DNA of 61,664 nucleotides, counting the filler, from Dugesia japonica (Eukaryota): the NCBI GenBank assembly GCA_001938525.1. It is 6 parts of 6 records of this genome, joined end to end, with 100 filler letters (N's around TTAATTAATTAA, not from the genome) between each part and the next. Parts side by side here need not be neighbours in the genome. Positions count along the whole stretch, not along the records: positions 1 to 9,561 come from MQRL01627259.1; 5 more parts are not named here. One strand, given 5' to 3'. Both the position numbers and the translations under genes were made by a program. Under the pieces are notes generated by a model. That model was not told the DNA's origin. It worked only from the letters and a program-made list of their open reading frames with translations, and did no database searches. Within the stretch, counting starts at the first letter, position 1; every line of letters begins with the position of its first letter. Of the stretch, positions 3 through 34,315 are shown one piece after another.

Positions 3-638
3 CTTGACTGTTATCATATCTACATATACTATTAATTGTTCTATATCAATTTCTGTTAAGATTGCGTATTTGAGAAATGATGTATGGTTAATCAGATCTA
101 TATAATTTACTGCACAATGCCCTTTTATAATAGTGTATGTAGGGAAAGGTACAGGAATATGATCATGATAAAATAACTCTACACAAAGAACGGCTGGAAT
201 ATCCTGTATTGCAACTTTTATTTGGTTTACTCCTGGATCTATTTTNCCCTCTAATATTAGTGTGTTGTTTGCCAGCATATGTATATCTATTTTTTTGTAT
301 GAGAATCTAATAGGAGTTTTTGTAACATGTAATCTAATTTCTTTAAGTACTCGTTTGTCATTTAATAGTGCTTCTTGTGGATCTTCCTCTATTTCTATGT
401 ACCCTATCAATTGTTGTAGTGAGTATCTCTGAGCTTTCTGAAATCGTATCACAATGATATCTTTATCAAAAGTGTTGTTTTTTAAGACATTCAGGATTGT
501 ATTCACACCATTAAAAACTTCTATCCTAGGTTCACTGTCTTTATCTTTGAATGCAAAACTTTGGATATGGTTAAAAAATGCGCGACATCTTTTGTGACTA
601 AGGATGAGGATGAAGGAATGTTTGCCGATTGTGTAGAT
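3..638 (-). CDS. Open frame of at least 212 codons running off the window edge; second part of the Gypsy accessory region, unknown product
   Basis: Manual translation IYTIGKHSFILILSHKRCRAFF...VELFYHDHIPVPFPTYTIIKGHCAVNY...MITVK has no stop before base 1, which is probably why it is absent from the ORF track. Confidence 0.6.
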   Translation of the reverse strand, partial: MYTIGKHSFILILSHKRCRAFFNHIQSFAFKDKDSEPRIEVFNGVNTILNVLKNNTFDKDIIVIRFQKAQRYSLQQLIGYIEIEEDPQEALLNDKRVLKEIRLHVTKTPIRFSYKKIDIHMLANNTLILEXKIDPGVNQIKVAIQDIPAVLCVELFYHDHIPVPFPTYTIIKGHCAVNYIDLINHTSFLKYAILTEIDIEQLIVYVDMITVK

Positions 639-1112
639 TTATTGTGCATTGACTGTATTACTTCGCTATTTTTGTTATCTTCTCTTTTTATGTTATGTTC
701 TGCTTGCTTGTATTGATGTGTTCTCTGTATATTATTGTTTGATTGTTGAATGTGTATGACGTGTTGTTTTGACTGCATTGTGTAATATGTAAAGGAATGG
801 TATTTTCTGATTTATCTGTTATATATTATAATGTATTTATTGACCTGGCTTGTTTCTGATATCTTTTTTTTAAGTGTTATTTCTAAAAAAATGTAATAAT
901 TAATTTTTGATTTTAAGGACTAACTAGTCCTATATACTGCCACATGTATAAGTAGCTTATAATATAAATAAAAATATATATAAATAATGAAATAGAATTT
1001 TAACAAATTTTGTATAGGGTGTTCAGACCAATGTCCACTGGACATAATTCGGAATTTGTGTGGTATTGCGACGCCGATAACGCTGCCTCTTCCACCTGTA
1101 TTGCTTATGTAT

Positions 1113-2096
1113 TTATACTAATGTAATTATGAAAGCGAGGAGGAAGAGTAATGCAATTATTCCCAATATCGAAAATGGATGATATAATATTTTCATGTCA
1201 AATGGTTTTATTGTGGTTGTAATCCATATCTGTAGAATTTTATGTCGCAATTGTTGATGATCTACATTTATGTTATTGATCAAAGTCTGTTTATTTCTTC
1301 TTGGATTTTTGTTTGTTATCGCACTCGTTGTCGTTTTTTCTGTAAAATTATTATATATTATTGTATCATGGGGAATAGTTGTTTCTATTTTCTGTCTGGT
1401 TGTAATTAACTTCGTTTGGCTGGTAACAAATTTTTTCTTTATTTGTGGTTTGGTTGTACTCAACTCTTTTTGTTGTATAGGAATAGTCATAAATCGCGTT
1501 TTGATTTGTAGTTCGGTTGTACTCAACTTTCTTTGTGTTGCAGTACTAGTCACTAACGGTTTTAGTGGTATCATTCGTTTCTTTTGTAGTGTAGTGACTA
1601 TATATTGTTTAATTGAGTTGATTCCCTTTATCTGATAATGTATCCAAATTCTATGTTTTGTGTTGGCCTTTAATCCTTTTATCTCTATTTGGCCTATCCC
1701 TTTGTACACTTTCCATGGTAAGAAAACATATTTCTTTTTCTTGATGTATTCACTCGATATACCTCTATCGTATGTGATTGGTCTTTCTTTTATTGCTGCA
1801 GCGATCGCCATATTATTAGCTGTCCTGAGTATAATTCTATTGGAATAGATGATCCTTTTTATATATCCAGAACTCTCTTCCTTTTTTAGTCGAGTTGCAC
1901 CTACTGTTAATAATGTCAATAAAGTTAGTGCGAATAATAGTAATGCATTTTGTGATCCTGATCGAAGGTTATATTTGTGTTGTTTTTCCTGTTCAATTTC
2001 TGCTTCTGCCATTTTGCATCGGTTAACTGCCACAATCACGGAGTTGTCTTTTTTGTTTTTTATTATGTGTAAATTTGTAGGAGTTGTTTTTACCAC
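1113..2096 (-). CDS. Integrase C-terminus fused to an env-like membrane protein (signal peptide, possible FN3-like segment, Thr-rich stalk, TM helix)
   Basis: Frame continues KGPYEVVKTTPTN..VAVNRCK..KYNLRS, then NALLLFALTLLTLLTVGA, IEIKGLKANTKHRIWIHY, a Thr-rich tract and ILGIIALLFLLAFIITLV. Confidence 0.7.
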   Translation of the reverse strand: MVKTTPTNLHIIKNKKDNSVIVAVNRCKMAEAEIEQEKQHKYNLRSGSQNALLLFALTLLTLLTVGATRLKKEESSGYIKRIIYSNRIILRTANNMAIAAAIKERPITYDRGISSEYIKKKKYVFLPWKVYKGIGQIEIKGLKANTKHRIWIHYQIKGINSIKQYIVTTLQKKRMIPLKPLVTSTATQRKLSTTELQIKTRFMTIPIQQKELSTTKPQIKKKFVTSQTKLITTRQKIETTIPHDTIIYNNFTEKTTTSAITNKNPRRNKQTLINNINVDHQQLRHKILQIWITTTIKPFDMKILYHPFSILGIIALLFLLAFIITLV

Positions 2097-3499
2097 TTCA
2101 TATGGACCTTTATAAGGTCTTGCTAATTTATTTGTTTACCCTTTCTGTGTAACTGGTGCTTTTATCTTCACCTTATCTCCCACTTTAAAATTATGTTCTC
2201 TAGCTTTTCTGTCATGATAATCTTTGTATTGTTCCTATTTGAATTTTACTTTTAGATTGGCTTGTTTATAGTCTTTCTTGTATTGTTGTAAAGTAATCTG
2301 GATTATCCATGTATTGTGACACAATTGGCTCAAATATTATATCTATTGGCATATGATTTTGTCTGAGGTACATAAGATAAAATGGTGAATATCCCGTGGC
2401 CTCGTTTTCAGTTGTATTATGTATGAATAATGCTGGCTTAATAAATAGATCCCAATCATTTTGATGTTTATTTACGAAAACTGCCAATCTATTACATAAT
2501 TTACTGTTGAATCTTTCAACTAACTCATCAGTTTGTGGGTGATATACCGTCGTATTTATTTTTTTAATATTAAACATATTTGTCACCCTTTGTGTGACTT
2601 CATTGAGGAAATTCTTTCCCCTATTGGATAGCAGCTTTCTTGGCGCTCCATATTTGTATATTATTTTTTCAATTAATAACTTTGCTACTGTATCTGCTGT
2701 TTCATCTTTTGTAGGAAATGCCTCTGNCCACTTTGTAAAATAGTCATTGAATACTAATATATGTTTATTGCCTTTTATAGTTGTTGGTAATTTGCACAAA
2801 AATTCCATTGCACATGTTTCCATTGGTTAGCTGGGTATTGACATTGGTTGTAATGGAACTTTGATTTTTGTTCCTGCGTTCTTTCTTGTGGCACAGATAC
2901 TACACGCTTGACACTATTTCTTCAGATCCTCTTTGATATTATCCCAATAGTATTTTTGTAGCAACCTTAACGTGGTTTTTCTACTAGATAGGTGTCCTCC
3001 GAGTGCTCCATCATGATATTGTAATAATAACAACTGTTTTAGAGAATCTGGTACAACCATCAGATTTTTCCCTAAATTATTGTACATAAGTAAATTCTTA
3101 TACATTTTATATTTAGTATTCTTTTCTTGCAGCATCATCTTTTTAATCTCTTTTATTTGTTTATCTTTATTTTGTTCCTCTAGAAAAGTTTTTGGGTTTG
3201 CTCTTGTCATCACAATTGACATCATTACTAATATATTCACTTCTGGAATTCTTGATAATGCATCGGCGTTTTTGTTTGCTCTACCTGGCTTTTATATAAT
3301 ACGTATGATCATATCTTGAATTTTATTGTCCACTTCAGTATTCTACTGGATGCATTATTATTTTTCCATAGACCCTCTAAGGATTTATGATCTGTTCGGA
3401 TGACATTTTCTGTTCCATATATAAATGGTCTAAATTGTTTTTTACGCGAATATGATAGCTAAACATTCTTTTTCAATTGTTGAATACCTATTTCTAGTT

Positions 3500-4730
3500 T
3501 AATAGATCATTAGGTTCTGAAATATTAATTATTTTATTGAGAATAGACAGTCTTTTAGAAATATAAAACTATATTATTTCATAACCTACTTAAGAAAATT
3601 CATTTACATAAAAACTTAATTAAACCAAAATAAATTTCACTATAAAATTCAACATGCAAAAGTAAATTATTTTATTCTTTAATCGAGCTCCCAGCTATTC
3701 CATAAAAATTTAATGACTTTTGAATATCATTTTCTCACAAATTCGACTTTCAATTTTCCTCATGTCTCTGCCATAAATTACTAACTGCTAGATATCATTT
3801 TCTCACAAATTTGACTTTCATTTTTTACTCACATTGCTGCAATAAATTACTGATTTTTGGAGCTCAATCATCGTACAATATATGGAACACTCAGATCATA
3901 AAACGGTTAAGAGTTTAATAACATTAGCACAATAGAACAAAGATTTTCTTCTCACTATTATCTTCGATATCCAAAAGCTTTCTAAGAATTTCTTCACTGT
4001 CCGGAATTTATTTCGATGAAAACTAAAAATATAGTATCAAAAATTATGTTCAATGATTGTAATAATAATAAAAAATTAAAGTGTGAATCTGATTATTTTT
4101 TCAGTGCAAACGAGTTTTATTCATTGTTTGCACCACAACTTCCAACTCATCATTCGTCCACCAATCAGCTTCGATTTTTGCCCAATTTGGGTTTTATGAT
4201 AGGTTGCTACATTGCTCTCCTTTGGTGTGCACCTCTTTATTTTCGGTTTGGTGAGAGGTTCGCGCACACCAACTCACCGATAATCTCCTGTCATCAGTCA
4301 CCTTGTATGACCTCTGATGGCGGATTTTAGTTACCACCGATTTTCTTTGTCTGGTTAAGGGTGATTCATGAAGTTTGTTATTAAATTTGGACTTAATTCA
4401 CCTTTACCAGACGATGACTGGACCAAATATTTCTTTAATTAAGAAATAATTAATAATATAAAACGCTGAATAGCGTTATTATAGTAATGAAATAGGGTCG
4501 TAGAGGACCCTTTAATAATTTATTATATAGTATATTATTTTTATTATTTAATACATCATTTTCTTTTATCTCATATACTTTTCGCTACCATGCAACGAAA
4601 TTTGGGTCATCTACGCCCGATTTCGGATTTTCGAGATTTCCAAAATTAATTCATTATAATTATATTAATAATTACATAATAATAATGATAATTCTGTATA
4701 TAATAAGCAATTTTTTGGTTCAGCCCATCA
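3500..4730 (-). repeat. Probable LTR fragment (start TGATGGGCTGAACC at 4730 on minus strand)
   Basis: Terminus resembles TGTTGGGGTGAAAC at 9978(+), 9970(-) and 39814(-); contains an internal ~70-bp tandem duplication near 3724-3855. Confidence 0.45.
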
Positions 4731-6165: not shown

Positions 6166-6295
6166 AGTAGTGGTAAAATGACGGTTTCCCGACAAGGTTC
6201 TACCCTTCGTTTACCTTACAACCTGTCATAGGATAAAATAATGTATTGTAAATATAAAAAAACACTTGTCGGGAAACGGTCATTTTACCACTACT
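6166..6295. repeat. 31-bp inverted repeat with Maverick-type AGTAGT...ACTACT termini, 130 bp overall
   Basis: 6166-6196 AGTAGTGGTAAAATGACGGTTTCCCGACAAG vs 6265-6295 reverse complement, 1 mismatch. Confidence 0.85.
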
Positions 6296-6538: not shown

Positions 6539-7858
6539 ATGGAGTTACATAATATAATAGAAACAAATATTAATCTTGATAATAATATTAATTTCCAACA
6601 TTTATTTTTGAAAAATGATGTTTTAAGAAGTACACCTTCATCTTGTTCAATTAGTCATTTAATGTCTTCTGGAAATATAGTTTTTCAATCTTTACAATCA
6701 TCAAATCCATTAGACATTTCTAATTCAATGTTATAGTAGAGATAACTGTTTCAGATAAAGATAAAATAACTTTAGAAAATAATTGGTTTCCTAGTTTATT
6801 CAAAACGATGAGATTAACTTTAGGATCTTCAGATGTAGAAAAAATTCATGATCCTAGAATAATTTCAACAATGTTAAATTTTATAACAACTACTTCAACT
6901 TATAAAAATATTTATGGTAAATCATCTGGATGGATTCCAGACACAAATAAAGGACATTTAGATGTTAATGGATTGGGTAAAAATTTAGGTTTTTATAAAA
7001 GAAATAAACTTTATTCGAAAAATAAATTTGAAGGTGGTTTTTCTTTAGAAAATTTATTTGGATTTATGCAATGTTATAATAGATTATTATATAATACAAA
7101 GATTGAATTTACTTGTAATCGANNNNNNNNNNNNNNNNNNNNNNNNNNNNNNNNNNNNNNNNNNNNNNNNNNNNNNNNNNNNNNNNNNNNNNNNNNNNNN
7201 NNNNNNNNNNNNNNNNNNNNNNNNNNNNNNNNNNNNNNNNTTTTAGAAAGAATTTATACAAATAAATCTATTCAAGTTTGTTTTTTAAATAGAATTACTT
7301 CAAGTACAACTTTAGTTTCTTGAAATAAATATTCACTTAAATTGATTAATTTAGTTTATAAACCAAGATATATATTTATTGTAATAAAAGATGATGATAT
7401 TTCTTATCAAAAGAATAACANNNNNNNNNNNNNNNNNNNNNNNNNNNNNNNNNNNNNNNNNNNNNNNNNNNNNNNNNNNNNNNNNNNNNNNNNNNNNNNN
7501 NNNNNNNNNNNNNNNNNNNNNNNNNNNNNNNNNNNNNNNNNNNNNNNNNNNNNNNNNNNNNNNNNNNNNNNNNNNNNNNNNNNNNNNNNNNNNNNNNNNN
7601 NNNNNNNNNNNNNNNNNNNNNNNNNNNNNNNNNNNNNNNNNNNNNNNNNNNNNNNNNNNNNNNNNNNNNNNNNNNNNNNNNNNNNNNNNNNNNNNNNNNN
7701 NNNNNATTAATACTGTGAATGTAACTTTACATTTAACTAAAGATCCTGGTTTTAAAGGAAGTTTGTATTGGTGTATTTTAGAGGAAAAACATATAGAAAT
7801 GAAATTATCAGATAGTAAAATTGTTATGATTGAAAATGTTCGAGGAGAAAAATTCTAA
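6539..7858 (+). pseudogene. Polinton/adintovirus major capsid protein (double jelly-roll, PY-type)
   Basis: Motifs LENNWFPSLFKTMRL, GW.PD, GFYKR, LENLFGFMQCYNRL, KPRYIFI; in-frame stops at 6734 and 7321; N gaps. Confidence 0.8.
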
Positions 7859-7877
7859 TTAGATTTTAAATTTAAGT

Positions 7878-7903
7878 TGTCGTCTACAGACGACACTTTT
7901 TAT
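7878..7903 (+). terminator. GC-rich hairpin TGTCGTCT-AC-AGACGACA followed by TTTTTAT after the capsid stop
   Basis: Perfect 8-bp stem about 20 nt after the TAA; terminator role is inferred only. Confidence 0.4.
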
Positions 7904-7920
7904 TTAGAGTTTAAGTTTAA

Positions 7921-8202
7921 AAAATCATTGATCCAGATAAAATAAAAAAAATAATCGAAGATCATAACTATGAAAATGATAACTTTAGTTTTAAACAGAA
8001 ATTTAAAATTGGAGATATAGTTAGAATCTTTAAATATAAATATAAATTTGAAAAAAGATTTACAGCTAAATGGACAAATGAAATATTTATTGTAACAAAA
8101 GTATATAAAACAAAACCTTTTACTTGTGGAATTACAAACTTAGAAAATGAAAAAATTCTAGGTAGATTTTATGATTATGAACTTCAGAAAACAGTTTTAT
8201 AA
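7921..8202 (+). pseudogene. Maverick c-integrase C-terminal domain (catalytic core absent)
   Basis: KFKIGDIVRIFKYKYKFEKRFTAKWTNEIFIVTKVYKTKPFT...GRFYDYELQK matches the Polinton integrase tail pattern; no start codon in frame. Confidence 0.85.
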
Positions 8203-8711: not shown

Positions 8712-9068
8712 ATGGGGAATACACAAAATTCTAAAAAATCAAAAAAAAATAATGAAGAACTCACTAACATTCATGACCAGAAGGAACTCAATAACGCTTG
8801 TGACCAAAAAGAACTACAAGAAAATAATATTGAAAAAGAAGAGCAAAAAGAAGAAAAAGAAGAGCTAACACAAACAGAAGGTGATAAAAAACCTAAAACA
8901 TTTTGGAAACAGTTAATTAATGATATATCAATAGAAAAAATAGATGAAATTCCATTTTACAATAACTTAAATTTTATAAATATGGGTATGCCAAATTTAC
9001 CTTTATTAAATATGAGTGCTAGTAAATTAACTAATGATTACATAAAAGAAAAAAGTAATAAATATTAA
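8712..9068 (+). CDS. Maverick hypothetical protein B (MGN N-terminus, acidic tract)
   Basis: Intact 118-aa ORF with AAAATG context; probable paralogue of ORF A. Confidence 0.7.
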   Translation: MGNTQNSKKSKKNNEELTNIHDQKELNNACDQKELQENNIEKEEQKEEKEELTQTEGDKKPKTFWKQLINDISIEKIDEIPFYNNLNFINMGMPNLPLLNMSASKLTNDYIKEKSNKY

Positions 9069-9085
9069 TTTTTTATTTAATAAAA

Positions 9086-9561
9086 ATGACACAGCTAATC
9101 TGGAATAAAAATAAAACCATATTTAATAATAAAATCTTTCCATTTCATTTTAGATTATTAATAATTGGTTCTTCAGGATCTGGTAAAAATGTTTTATTAA
9201 TGAAAATGTTATTAACTCCTAAGTTTTTAGATTATGATACTTTAATAATTTATTCTACTACAATAAATCAATTTGAATTACAATTACTTTATCGTGGTTT
9301 TGAAAATGGATTATCAAAAGAAGATATTATTTTTATTTTTGAACATCAAAATATAATTCCTGATTCCTTGATAACACCATTAGAAGTAATTCAATGGGAT
9401 ATTAAAAAATATTCAGTCCCATAAAAAACCAAAGAATGGTAAATGTAATTTTAAGTAATAAACCAAATGAAATTATTCCTTGTGATTAATTATCGAAAGA
9501 TAAAAAGAATTTAATAGTTTTTGATGATGTTGTTAATGAAAAAAATCAAGAAGTACAAAAA
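9086..9561 (+). pseudogene. A32/FtsK-like DNA packaging ATPase
   Basis: Walker A GSSGSGKN after FRLLII; Walker B NLIVFDD near 9510-9530 beyond stops. Confidence 0.88.
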
Positions 9562-15215: not shown

Positions 15216-17489
15216 AAATACGAGCAAAAGTTTCCAGAGCCTAAAGATGTCAAAGCAATACAAGAATTTCTTGGATTATGCGGATATTACAGGAAATTTA
15301 TTAAAGTTTATGCATTGATCGCAAAACCCATGCAAGATCTTGTAAAGCAAGATACAGCCTTTATATGGGCAGATGAACAACAAAAATCATTCGAATCTCT
15401 CAGAAATCCGATTACTAAAAGCACCAATTTTAGCTCATCCAAATTTTGAATAATTATTCTTACTTTCAACTGATACAAGCGGATACGCAGCAGGAGCTGT
15501 ATTAGGCCAGTATGATGATCAAGGGCGAGAACACGTTATAGCGTATTTCAGCAAAACATTNNNNNNNNNNNNNNAAAAATTACAGTACAACAGAAAAAGA
15601 AGCTCTCGCGATAGTAAAAGCAATTAAACATTTTAGACATCTACTTCTCGGACATGAAGTCATTATATTCTCAGATCATCAACTATGATTGGTCAGAAAC
15701 CATTACGAACTCTCAGACTTGCAAAATGGGCAATGAGTTTACAAGAATACATGTTGAAAATAAAATTCAGGCGCGGCAAAGCAAATTCTAATGAAGATTG
15801 TCGATCACGGGAAATATTTCCAGAACTTGTAAACAAACAAACGGAAGATATCTGTTTCTAATTATCAGAAGACATAGATAACAATTCAAGGAGGATCAAA
15901 AGAAAGACTCGGAAGTAAAAATTATTCAGGAATATCTAATGGCAACGCAAAGTGATGCACTAAAATGCAACACAGAAATGAGAGAACACTTACTGAAAAA
16001 TGGATGTCGTTACACAATAGAAAAAGGATGGTTAATGGCACAGAATNNNNNNNNNNNNNNNNNNNNNNNNNNNNNNNNNNNNNNNNNNNNNNNNNNNNNN
16101 NNNNNNNNNNNNNNNNNNNNNNNNNNNNNNNNNNNNNNNNNNNNNNNNNNNNNNNNNNNNNNNNNNNNNNNNNNNNNNNNNNNNNNNNNNNNNNNNNNNN
16201 NNNNNNNNNNNNNNNNNNNNNNNNNNNNNNNNNNNNNNNNNNNNNNAGGAAAAGCACCATTAAAACCAATGCCAATACCAACTAAACCAATGGAGATCAT
16301 GGCAATGGACGTAGTCGGACGAATTTTCGAAACTGTAGATGGAATATCATACATTCTGGTATGTATGGATTATCTGTCTAAATATCCTGAAGCATTCCCG
16401 ATTAAAATCAAAAAGCCACAACGATAGCAGAAATATTTGTAAAGGAAATTTGCAGCACCAAAGAAGATCCTAAATGATGAAGGCAGAAATTCTATGAACG
16501 ACATTTTTACAGAAGTCACTAGATACTTCCAAATATTGAAGTTAAGAACATCACCGTACCATCCACAGACAGACGGACTAGTAGAAAGGTTTGACAGAAC
16601 CTTAATTAATATGATATTTTGTTATGTTGATAGAAAAAAAAGACTGGCATCAATTTATACATTTAGTACTATTTGCATATCGATCACAAGTACAACCAGC
16701 CACTAATTATACTCCATTTTTTTCATGTATGTCAGAGAATGTAATTTACCAATAGATTTGGAATACCAACCTCCAATATTACAATATATGGAACAGGAAG
16801 AAGAATTGCAAGAGATCTGGAATAAAGCACGATTAAATATCAAATATTATTGAGAAAGTGTCAAAGATTATCATGACAAGAAAGGAGATAGAGTATTGGT
16901 TAATACTCTAGAAATAGAAATCGGAACGATAGCAAAGTTAAAGAGACTAGGCAAAGGGCCTTACGAAGTATTAGAGTCACAGAAACGAATGTAAAATTCA
17001 GATTAGCTGGTAAAATACTTCAGAAACCACTATGGATTCATGTGAATAAATGTAAAAAGGCAGCTTTAACTAAAGTGACAGATGAACAAATCATCACGGA
17101 AACCCAAGAAACAGAAGTACAAGAATTGGAGGGAACAGAACCAACTCAAGAAGTATCGAGTGACTCGGAGGATTAACAAAAATTGCCATACAAAGGATTA
17201 AAACGTGGACGAAAACCACTAGAAATACGAATTCAACCACCAGCAGAAGTTAAAGATGATCATGTCAGATCTCAGCCAGAACAAATTTGTATGTTGCAAG
17301 TCAGCAAAAAATCAAAAACTAACTCTTGTAAAAAATGAGGTGTCACACAAAGAAACACAATACCAATAGATCAAATAACAGCACGATTTGACTGTTACCA
17401 ATATAATATTGTTTTTCAAAATGAATTAATGGTATCAGAGGCCAGAATAGCCCTGAAATTGAGACAATTGTTCCGTACACAGGATAAAA

Positions 17490-31918: not shown

Positions 31919-34315
31919 CCCTTTCATTACTCTCAAATCGAGTTTGCTAAAACCTGACTTTTTAAAGCCCGATGGTTTTCTCGGGTTTTCGGGCTTGATA
32001 AAAAAATAAAATCTTTTTACAATATATATAATTATTATATCATATTATATGAAAATTTTTATTCAAATTTTTTGTTAAGGAAATAGTATTTTAAGAATAT
32101 GCAAAGATTTATCTGACAATCTGGAAGGCAATTGTGTAAAGAAGTTATTAGCAAAAGAAAATGATTTTTCTGCGTTGAATGATGATGTTTTGATCATGTT
32201 AATATTAGGGTGTCCCAAAAGTTTATTTTCATTTTTTTGAAAGTGTAATATTTAAAGTGAAATTGCTTAAATAGTTTAATAAATTAAACTTATTTAGTCT
32301 TATTTTTAAACGACATATAAAAAGTAAAATGCTATAAATAAAAAATATTGATTTAATATTTTTTTGTTAGTATTCCAGAATAATATGAAAATTGGTCAAA
32401 AATATACTATTCGTATACTATTACTCCATTATTGGAAAAGGGATTCAGTGCCAGAGCCGCAGCAGTTGACATATGTGAAGTTGAAGGAGCCAAATTCGTG
32501 AGTAAAAGCGCAGCCATCAAATGATTTAAAATTTTCAATTCTGGTAATACAGATCTTAATGATGAGCCACGTTATGGAGGACCCTCAACAGAATTCTACG
32601 GGGGGATCCCTGTACCAGTGTCCGAAGGCTTTCAGATAAACTTCAAATTCCGAAATTTTCAGTACACCGCAAACTTCTATCTCATAACAAGAAAAATAGG
32701 AGATGCAAAATTGTACCTCATGATCTGACTCCCGAACAAGTGGAAAAACGTGTGAAAATATGTGAACTCCTTCTCTACACAAATGATCAACTATTTATGA
32801 AAACCATAGTTACTTGCGTGAGAAATGGGTGTACTTCCAGAATCCAGACTTGCGAAATCAGTGGTTAAGCCCTTCTTATACCAGTTGCTAAGCACTACCA
32901 ATTTGAACACAAGGTTTTGTTGTGTATTTGGTGGAATTACGAGGGCCCCATACACTTTGAGTTGGTTCCAAATGGACGTGCAATAACATCCCAGTTTTAT
33001 GTTGAGCAGCTGCAACGTATGTATGAAATCCCTGTAACCAAATACCCAGCTCTAATAAACAGAAAACGTGTTTTGTTACAACAGGGCAATGCTCGTCGAC
33101 ATGTTGCTTGGCAAACCAAAAATAAGATAGCGAAACTAGAAAGGATTGAGCTGCTATCACACCCAGCATATATTCCGGACCTTGCACCCTCAGAATATTA
33201 CCTCTTTCGTCCCATGGCTCATTACTTGCAAGGGAAAAGTTTACAGAATGTGTAAGACGTGAGAACCGGTNTCACNGAATTTTTTGCATCAAAGTCCANA
33301 AAGTGGTACATGAATGGTATCAAAGAATTAAGTGGGAGATGGTTAAAGACAATTCAACATTAATTGCTTTAATAATATCTTTTAATAATCGATTCAAATT
33401 TTAAGTCATTGTTTTTGCTTAAATAAAATTCTTGTCGCAATTTTATATAACTATCAACTTTAGAGAAATATTGAGAACAATATGCTTTTAAACGAGTTTC
33501 TAATTCCCTTCAAATGAAAGATTTTCGTTGATGTCCGTCACTGTATTTTCAATATAAATTTTATAAAATATATAAATAAAGTCAAATAAAAAATAGCAAT
33601 AAATATATAATTAAAGTCATTCTAATAACTTGAATAAATCAAAAAGTAAATCTCCGAAGAAGATTATCGTCGAAAATTAAAATTACTAACTAAAGAAACA
33701 AAAAAACAAATTTTTGATCTAAGTTTTAATTAATTGAAACTTTCTAAAATGCGATCAATGGTTAAGTCCAACAATTATTTGGACAATAATTATAATTGTA
33801 AAAATTGCTTTTAACTACTTTTATATTTACAAATTAAAAAATTGGAAAACATTAGCAAACTACCGTACCGCAGCACGTGTTGCCTGACACTGATTTATAC
33901 GATAGTTTTAGCAAAAATTATTAGAATAAATTGTTCGTAGCTAAAAACCATAATGTTAAAACCATTAAATTTAACCAAAGAGTTTTAAAATATAAACTAG
34001 AGCCCATCGAGCTTTAATTTCATGTTTCAGTTACCCTAAAATCATATAAACTCGTTGGGCTGGAGTCTTTTCTGTTTCAAACACTACACTCCATGCCAAA
34101 TGGTGTCAGTGAATATTTTTTTGTTTTTGTTCAAGAATTCAAAATAATATGCTCATTATTTTGTTTGCGCAATTGGTAAAGTCAAGACAAACACACAACA
34201 TGAATAAAACCTGATGTTTTATTTATTTAAGGTGATATTTCCGGTTCAAAAACTATAACTTTGTTTATAATAAAGTAATTTTTCCCCAATAGAATTTAAT
34301 TTGGTAATGAAAGGG
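31919..34315. mobile_element. piggyBac-type element, internally deleted
   Basis: TIR CCCTTTCATTAC / GTAATGAAAGGG, both flanked by TTAA. Confidence 0.88.
32204..33363 (+). mobile_element. mariner transposase pseudogene
   Basis: Left end TATTAGGGTGTCCC; LCIWWN, QQGNARRH, HPAYIPDLAPSEYYLF, FFASK, RW motifs. Confidence 0.93.

Follow-up and report, generated by a model that had tools for sequence, protein, structure and literature searches.

A predicted type I membrane protein fused to the integrase of a decayed Gypsy element in Dugesia japonica

Introduction

Giant Burro-like elements are abundant in planarian genomes and have recently been linked to stem-cell survival, as cited in the accessible part of PMC13465017. 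According to the accessible text of PMC6431247, Burro carries env between gag and pol together with ubiquitin-like and ankyrin domains; it is also mentioned, in what is accessible of PMC8532177, PMC13238120 and PMC13465017, without domain maps. For errantiviruses, the accessible sections of PMC13524379 cover only F and gB types of env, report a GAG-ENV-POL order in Platyhelminthes, Nematoda and Bryozoa, and call the way in which env-bearing retrotransposons transmit elusive; the screen described there dropped regions over 10 kb, and the main text of that paper, as accessible, has 0 occurrences of the word "fibronectin". The same holds for the accessible main text of PMC5408684, which deals with LTR elements of bdelloid rotifers.

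The window analysed here, i.e. the whole stretch of 61,664 nucleotides from Dugesia japonica (GCA_001938525.1, filler included), contains a Gypsy copy whose integrase runs in frame into a membrane-protein-like module. Two relatives of this copy, the loci L005 and L006, resemble Burro/GYPSM1 as described in the accessible text of PMC6431247 in that a mononegavirus-like glycoprotein precedes pol within a single polyprotein of >3400-3700 aa, and L006 further in its CCHC knuckles and ubiquitin-like domain; L002 and L004 resemble Burro in their ankyrins, and accessory ORFs and a high copy number in an AT-rich host are common to both groups. In contrast, an FN3 domain, an integrase-fused TM protein and a PDZ-type end go unnamed in that account of Burro, the comparison being one of descriptions only, and the BIR and MATH domains of Burro were not found in the clade loci examined. 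With errantiviruses bearing F-type or HSV/gB-type env, the elements share a Ty3/gypsy pol and a membrane glycoprotein; the errantivirus ectodomains, in the accessible text of PMC13524379, are however large cysteine-bridged fusogens, whereas the module here is a small FN3-like one that lacks cysteines in the window and comes in addition to the fusogen. The rotifer elements, going by the accessible part of PMC5408684, are similar in that an exonuclease accessory ORF follows pol in a Gypsy element and that TM ORFs other than fusogens occur, but there the DEDDy exonuclease and the small TM ORF3s stand separate, in elements of ordinary size.

The Gypsy copy and its relatives

The copy is located on the minus strand in AT-rich, repeat-filled surroundings of ~30% GC, is decayed and 5'-truncated, and breaks off near 3500, just above an RNase H remnant. 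The pol-derived features are:

3315-3501, minus strand: RNase H remnant (Pfam RT_RNaseH across two frames; tblastn with the giant relatives starts at 3486)
2224-3054, minus strand: integrase zinc finger and core with in-frame stops (PF17921, E 2.8e-17; PF00665, E 1.4e-6)
1959-2300, minus strand: integrase C-terminal (GPY/F) region, up to YNLRS (40-58% identity to P0001-P0009 and P0011)

RNase H followed by an H2C2 and rve integrase with GPY/F tail is the arrangement of Ty3/gypsy elements (Metaviridae). In a tblastn search of the window with the giant relatives, the gag, fusogen, protease and RT of this element were all absent. The zinc finger and core are 47-53% identical to the clade loci L001-L009. 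The C-terminal region is disrupted by a stop at 2138-2136 and by a further stop and frame change near 2230-2300; the stop at 2136-2138 is absent from about 100% of the family depth in runs X1, X2 and X8. No long direct repeat was found within the window, where the copy lacks everything above about 3500 and extends past the window start, and no flanking LTRs were found in the 14 clade loci examined, all of them partial contigs.

Searches with the integrase yielded 55 proteins, and alignment of ten of the closest led to 46 loci. A quick tree with 91 rows placed the integrase of the window in a clade of 21 rows (SH-aLRT 99), on a long, early branch. With L032 omitted as a duplicate of P0001, and P0005 being the same as L002, the clade provides 19 distinct relatives; the counts given below for these kin are not independent of each other. 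L032 is a eukaryote-type retroelement contig that is filed under a Turicibacter MAG, most likely owing to binning contamination.

Parts of the stretch are present in 11 of 24 listed runs. Contigs of X1 and X2 (organism A) and X8 (organism B) were aligned at 80% identity over 247-2726, and all 30 bins of this interval were covered in the three runs, so that this is a multi-copy family. Summed depth, which is a measure of relative conservation and not of copy number, was 8,000-78,000 for the integrase and 15,000-68,000 for the TM segment and tail (994-1242), which are among the deepest parts, about 7,600-8,000 for the bin joining YNLRS and signal, and 200-1,100 for ectodomain and stalk (X1, X2). 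In the host family, the outside of the protein is thus variable and the inside conserved. Of the 17 listed variable places in 1023-2135, nine fall on third positions of the pol frame (about 6 expected), a weak excess that was counted with six clustered single-contig rows at 1707-1720 omitted. Of the 103 reads aligned from RNA run X13, none reached at least 99% identity, 84 were below 90% and none lay over 1326-1906; they stem from diverged relatives and are uninformative on this copy.

Several other elements were observed in the window. A second decayed Gypsy RT-RH-IN remnant (15225-17173, plus strand), the sequence 3' of which is heavily broken, has an integrase 43% identical to P0001 and possibly belongs to the same clade. 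An ORF resembling double-jelly-roll capsid proteins and an A32-like packaging ATPase (6724-7323 and 9062-9424, plus strand; PF21738, E 0.001, and PF04665, E 0.003) probably represent a decayed Polinton or Polinton-like virus. A Mariner-type transposase remnant is found at 32566-33255 (plus strand; PF01359, E 3e-12), and a MITE-like inverted repeat of 31 nt, with arms 97% complementary and 68 nt between them, at 6166-6295. The long hairpin at 4342-4419 (z -3.7) is probably not a mir-133 microRNA, its Rfam score of 29 being below the threshold of 55.5 bits.

A membrane module follows the integrase in frame

The longest ORF in the window, 2135-1113 (minus strand; 340 stop-free codons), starts with the integrase tail (aa 1-59, with the YNLRS end at 1973-1959) and runs through YNLRS into the module, so that the in-frame fusion proposed in the initial annotation was borne out. 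The features of the module are:

about 1887-1946, minus strand: signal-peptide-like stretch in the frame shared with the integrase (Kyte-Doolittle 1.95)
1596-1895, minus strand: ectodomain of ~100 residues, placed by its position in the module
1200-1595, minus strand: Thr-rich basic stalk, assigned by composition
1116-1172, minus strand: TM helix (Kyte-Doolittle 2.99; relatives 2.45-3.45)
1113-1115, minus strand: TAA between TM helix and tail
1023-1112, minus strand: cytoplasmic tail of 29 aa with a basic cluster, three Tyr and a final WTLV, then TGA (1023-1025)

The hydrophobic stretch comes with a V-G-A↓T site that, judged by eye only, is signal-peptidase-like. Inspection by eye also revealed no conserved initiator Met ahead of the signal, as would fit either splicing or the processing of a polyprotein. 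The stalk (aa 179-312) is composed of 20% Thr and 24% Ser+Thr, yet 18% Lys+Arg, with a single NxT, and contains a 63-nt tandem duplication (1423-1548). No cysteine occurs in aa 60-340 of the ORF. Searches for direct homologs of the window module among longer proteins, 1.84 billion representatives, viral contigs, PDB sequences, phage records and Pfam returned none.

A signal-ectodomain-TM module after the integrase was found in 16 of the 19 distinct relatives, in unbroken frame in 14 and broken by a stop or frame change in P0001/L032 and L008; P0010 stops inside the integrase, and P0009 and P0011 terminate without the module. A conserved stop directly after YNLRS, looked for across the clade, is not the pattern, and the layout of signal, ectodomain, stalk, TM and basic tail that had been read from the window is upheld. 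Outside the clade, a hydrophobic extension occurred in 0/44 proteins and 1/27 classed loci (5 more loci were not classable). The sole outgroup case, L014 (4867-7041), joins an unrelated Gypsy integrase and, by eye, a chromodomain-like region in frame to a signal-like stretch and a Cys-rich domain.

That the frame stayed open by chance in decayed AT-rich DNA is, in our estimate, hardly credible. The copy is indeed decayed, its DNA has about 30% GC, and this does account for the second hydrophobic stretch discussed below; a chance frame is opposed by 340 open codons, by the same layout in 16 relatives and by the coverage of 30 bins in three runs. For 1116-2135, a chance origin is refuted by the intact relatives: with 14 intact and two broken modules among 19 relatives, the layout is above chance.

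Fold of the ectodomain

Iterated profiles showed that the ectodomains of the relatives consist of 1-3 repeats of about 90 residues. A profile built from an alignment of 19 units matched fibronectin (E 5e-5), IL-2R beta, CD45 and tenascin, and found the held-out P0002, P0003, P0004, P0007 and P0008 and no outgroup sequence. The AlphaFold (AF2) model of an L001 unit is a beta sandwich (pLDDT 74.6), with fibronectin FN3-6 as top Foldseek match (TM 0.69, E 5e-4) and a Z of 9.6 and rmsd of 3.4 over 88 residues in the VIA comparison; viral fold matches to the clade unit were weaker (best E 0.006). The Atlas score to fn3 was 0.94 for P0002 aa 445-725. Profile, AlphaFold model and fold search concur, and the ectodomain of the relatives thus has the FN3 fold, a seven-stranded sandwich with a Leu..Tyr signature.

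In signal, FN3 domain, stalk, TM and short tail, as well as in fold matches, the module is like single-pass FN3 proteins of hosts (FNDC4/5, cytokine receptor chains, receptor phosphatases). Unlike these, it is part of a retroelement polyprotein, identity is just 10-20%, and no donor gene was found.

The impression that the segment IEIKGLKANTKHRIWIHY, located at 1688-1635 (minus strand), is reminiscent of FN3 therefore held for the relatives, by profile, AlphaFold and fold search, and is suggestive for this copy, whose own match is not significant. Aligned to the clade profile, the window ectodomain gave an hhalign E of 0.56, which is not significant; with two broad profiles, its score was equalled in 170 and 70 of 500 shuffles, with a third in 12/500, although that match fell in the stalk, and in a gap-tolerant test 31-36 of 300 shuffles scored equally. 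Its single-sequence AlphaFold model was poor (pLDDT 43.6) and was kept out of the fold search. The best alignment coincides with the FN3 L..t.Y motif, with His in place of the relatives' signature Tyr, and Atlas features (0.83-0.85) place it nearest to single-pass FN3 proteins, which we use as a lead only. From its position in the module, the window ectodomain is probably one divergent FN3 domain.

It is conceivable, although we regard it as the least probable of the readings that accept the module as real, that the lineage of the window retained signal, TM and tail and had its ectodomain replaced by an unrelated, non-FN3 one. L009, with its short Cys-rich ectodomain lacking the unit, seemingly took this course, and the insignificant profile match and the long, early branch of the window would agree with it. 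Against such a replacement stand the best alignment falling at the position of the FN3 signature and the Atlas neighbours among single-pass FN3 proteins. Moreover, some held-out units of the clade are equally weak (L007 unit 1, 8/100 shuffles; L008, 2-14/100); L008 has no significant unit match.

Cytoplasmic tail and termination

Past the TAA at 1115-1113, the basic segment IHKQYRWKRQRYRRR continues in frame; with X read at the TAA, the tail has eight basic residues within its first 20 and ends in WTLV, followed by the stop. Since in the relatives the TM helix continues into a tail of 24-122 aa, the TAA probably interrupts the frame of this copy or of its subfamily. It does not appear among the 40 variants listed of 572. 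For the sequence downstream of the TAA, folding z-scores of -0.45 and -0.79 and the lack of an Rfam match led us to reject an RNA readthrough signal. In view of the relatives' tails, we also abandoned the proposal that ORF 920-1117 gives the coding frame of the conserved block 994-1242.

Tail ends were compared in 16 relatives, of which L032 runs off its contig. In 13 of the remaining 15 the protein closes with S/T-x-V/L/I, which as a free C-terminus we take to be a class I PDZ-binding type end; the exceptions are L008 (SLF) and L009 (EVV). The motif was found in 0/44 outgroup proteins and at 4.3% of internal tail positions as background. Although these elements are kin, their tails are largely dissimilar and yet carry the same C-terminal motif, which suggests selection on the free C-terminus. 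By this motif, the tail is predicted to bind PDZ domains. As the window frame ends in WTLV like the PDZ-type ends of the relatives, TGA 1023-1025 is probably the true end of the protein.

The region downstream

Beyond the TGA lie:

641-1022, minus strand: AT-rich spacer (75% AT), which includes the "second signal" of the initial annotation
3-638, minus strand: accessory ORF running off the window (profile of 9 clade downstream ORFs, E 4.6e-5)

The second signal, and with it a precursor of several glycoproteins, did not survive closer analysis. The relatives stop 24-122 residues past the TM at their PDZ-type end, and the window's own PDZ-type end precedes the second hydrophobic stretch. The string ILFHYLYIFIYII reported for this stretch mixes two frames; the in-frame reading is ILFHYLYIFLFIL, followed by a stop. 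The interval 935-1008 is hydrophobic in all three minus frames (1.66, 1.76 and 1.66), as is accounted for by AT-rich low-complexity DNA. On the minus strand, 920-1045 holds a short hydrophobic frame, the ATG of which overlaps the last codons of the tail and the stop of which (920-922) is absent from about 99% of the family depth; this frame may represent a small ORF, or else no more than AT-rich spacer that is conserved.

In the relatives, the polyprotein stop is followed by a spacer of 166-513 nt (63-82% AT) and then by accessory ORFs, PF00929 being present in 5 of 9 clade downstream ORFs. In L001-L006 and L009, these are one or two ORFs of the DEDD-exonuclease family with a common unannotated N-terminal domain; further downstream ORFs encode a RING domain in L001 and a ubiquitin-like domain in L002. 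ORF 3-638 shows weak homology to the clade's DEDD-exonuclease accessory ORFs, over their N-terminal half: against the profile it scored 8.7, as compared to 7.5 for the best of 500 shuffles (0/500 as high). It was detected by profile search alone, with no longer homolog and no blastp match to ORFs of the loci. Through this weak profile match, the window shows accessory ORFs downstream of the polyprotein as Burro-like elements do, and with the 75% AT spacer in front of ORF 3-638 its gene order is shared with the relatives.

Fusion glycoprotein and giant polyproteins

L005 and L006 are the only loci that extend far upstream, as single ORFs of 3426 and 3703 residues. In both, the viral fusion glycoprotein PF24664 is encoded upstream of the protease (E 5e-94 and 1e-83, respectively); L006 additionally has CCHC knuckles and a ubiquitin-like domain. 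As the L005 fusogen has no match among PDB sequences, its class rests on Pfam. In 2/2 relatives reaching that far, gag, env and pol thus form a single giant polyprotein in which env lies between gag and protease, while the corresponding region is missing from the window. L005 and L006 belong to a subclade apart from the branch of the window, and by analogy with them the window's own family may likewise have an upstream fusogen.

An additional signal-FN3-TM cassette was found in L005 (aa 1585-1770, between fusogen and pol protease) and P0008 (aa 50-235, upstream of the protease), so that such elements can carry three membrane proteins; these upstream cassettes have no free C-terminus. An extra protease-like domain lies between integrase and signal in P0003, L002, L004 and L009. 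The polyproteins of L005, L006, P0006, P0011, L002, L004 and L009 each contain two to three aspartic-protease-like domains, frequently next to membrane cassettes; in L002 and L004, ankyrin repeats follow the integrase. Across the elements, the cargo comprises ubiquitin-like, ankyrin, RING and exonuclease domains.

The module had been suggested to be an independently acquired envelope, and an independently acquired fusogenic precursor of two glycoproteins processed by signal peptidase would explain its type I topology adjoining pol, the lack of homologs in protein searches, a fold left unsettled by the window's own model, and the possible short hydrophobic ORF in another frame past the TGA. We consider this improbable, if a shade less so than the replaced ectodomain. 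The segment shows no large Cys-bridged ectodomain with furin site and fusion peptide; its globular ectodomain has about 100 aa and zero cysteines, no Pfam env or fusion family matched at E up to 10, including PF24664 (the Cys-rich fusion ectodomain of about 600 aa of gB-type/chuvirus-like env), and viral fold matches of the clade unit lay at E above 0.006. The clade polyprotein ends at a PDZ-type motif, and the real fusogen of L005 and L006 is encoded elsewhere, upstream of pol. The initial annotation was therefore right in not recognising an F-type env and in placing the module in a polyprotein that would be processed, whereas its independently acquired envelope, if a fusogen is meant, is unsupported for this FN3-like, here cysteine-free module; "envelope" is probably the wrong label for it.

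Discussion

Most likely, the segment is the decayed C-terminal module of a Burro-like Gypsy giant polyprotein, a type I membrane protein and not the fusogen. Our best explanation, to which we give about even odds and which we prefer over all rivals, includes the FN3 protein as a putative attachment or targeting partner of the fusogen.

In such a scheme, one polyprotein would cross the ER membrane more than once. The internal signal would start translocation after the integrase, and signal peptidase would free the type I ectodomain protein, leaving the integrase tethered via the signal; the protease of the element would then release the integrase from the leftover anchor. The four relatives with an extra protease-like domain exactly at the junction of integrase and signal are counted with this release step, and the capsid of flaviviruses is freed from its anchor in a similar manner. 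As a partner in attachment or adhesion, the FN3 protein would assist the fusogen, and its C-terminal tail, docked on PDZ scaffolds of the host, would place budding or transfer at cell junctions and so aid cell-to-cell spread. Spelled out in full, this would be a two-component envelope from one polyprotein in a clade of giant animal LTR retroelements: a fusion glycoprotein captured from an RNA virus would precede pol, and a captured, host-like FN3 protein for attachment would follow the integrase, the variable ectodomain setting cell tropism and the PDZ-binding tail targeting release to cell junctions; in this complete form the proposal is tentative and on balance unlikely. Paramyxoviruses split the labour between attachment and fusion proteins, and the two-component envelope, if true, would place such a split inside a retrotransposon.

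Alternatively, the same protein with the same fold may have its role at the host cell instead of the particle: as a mimic or decoy resembling cytokine receptors or adhesion molecules, it may change signalling, survival or polarity, or prevent re-entry. We consider this possible, though less likely than the partner of the fusogen. Besides their PDZ-type end, the tails of the relatives bear Tyr and Pro-rich motifs, the structural neighbours of the clade unit are cytokine receptors and adhesion proteins, and the ubiquitin-like, ankyrin, RING and exonuclease cargo of the elements would suit such a role, as would the apoptosis and ubiquitin regulators reported for Burro in the accessible text of PMC6431247. 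However, co-translation with gag, fusogen and pol fixes the stoichiometry with particle parts, and second FN3-TM cassettes lie between fusogen and protease (L005) or upstream of the protease (P0008), both of which weigh against a host-cell decoy and are compatible with it.

A full-text literature search, judged by titles and the start of abstracts, returned no paper in which a Gypsy element is described with an FN3 or PDZ-tailed module; the main Burro papers (Grohme 2018, Lee 2026) and Repbase may mark TM or FN3 domains. On our best reading, the partner-of-the-fusogen explanation describes a non-fusogenic accessory FN3 surface protein of Burro-like giant elements that is not found in the accessible literature, and an existing annotation in Burro would lower its novelty.

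For annotators, the relatives show that a signal and TM after the integrase do not necessarily make a fusogen. For the question of how env-bearing retrotransposons outside insects choose and enter target cells, an FN3 surface protein with a PDZ-type tail would be a small, concrete candidate for attachment or for manipulation of the host cell.
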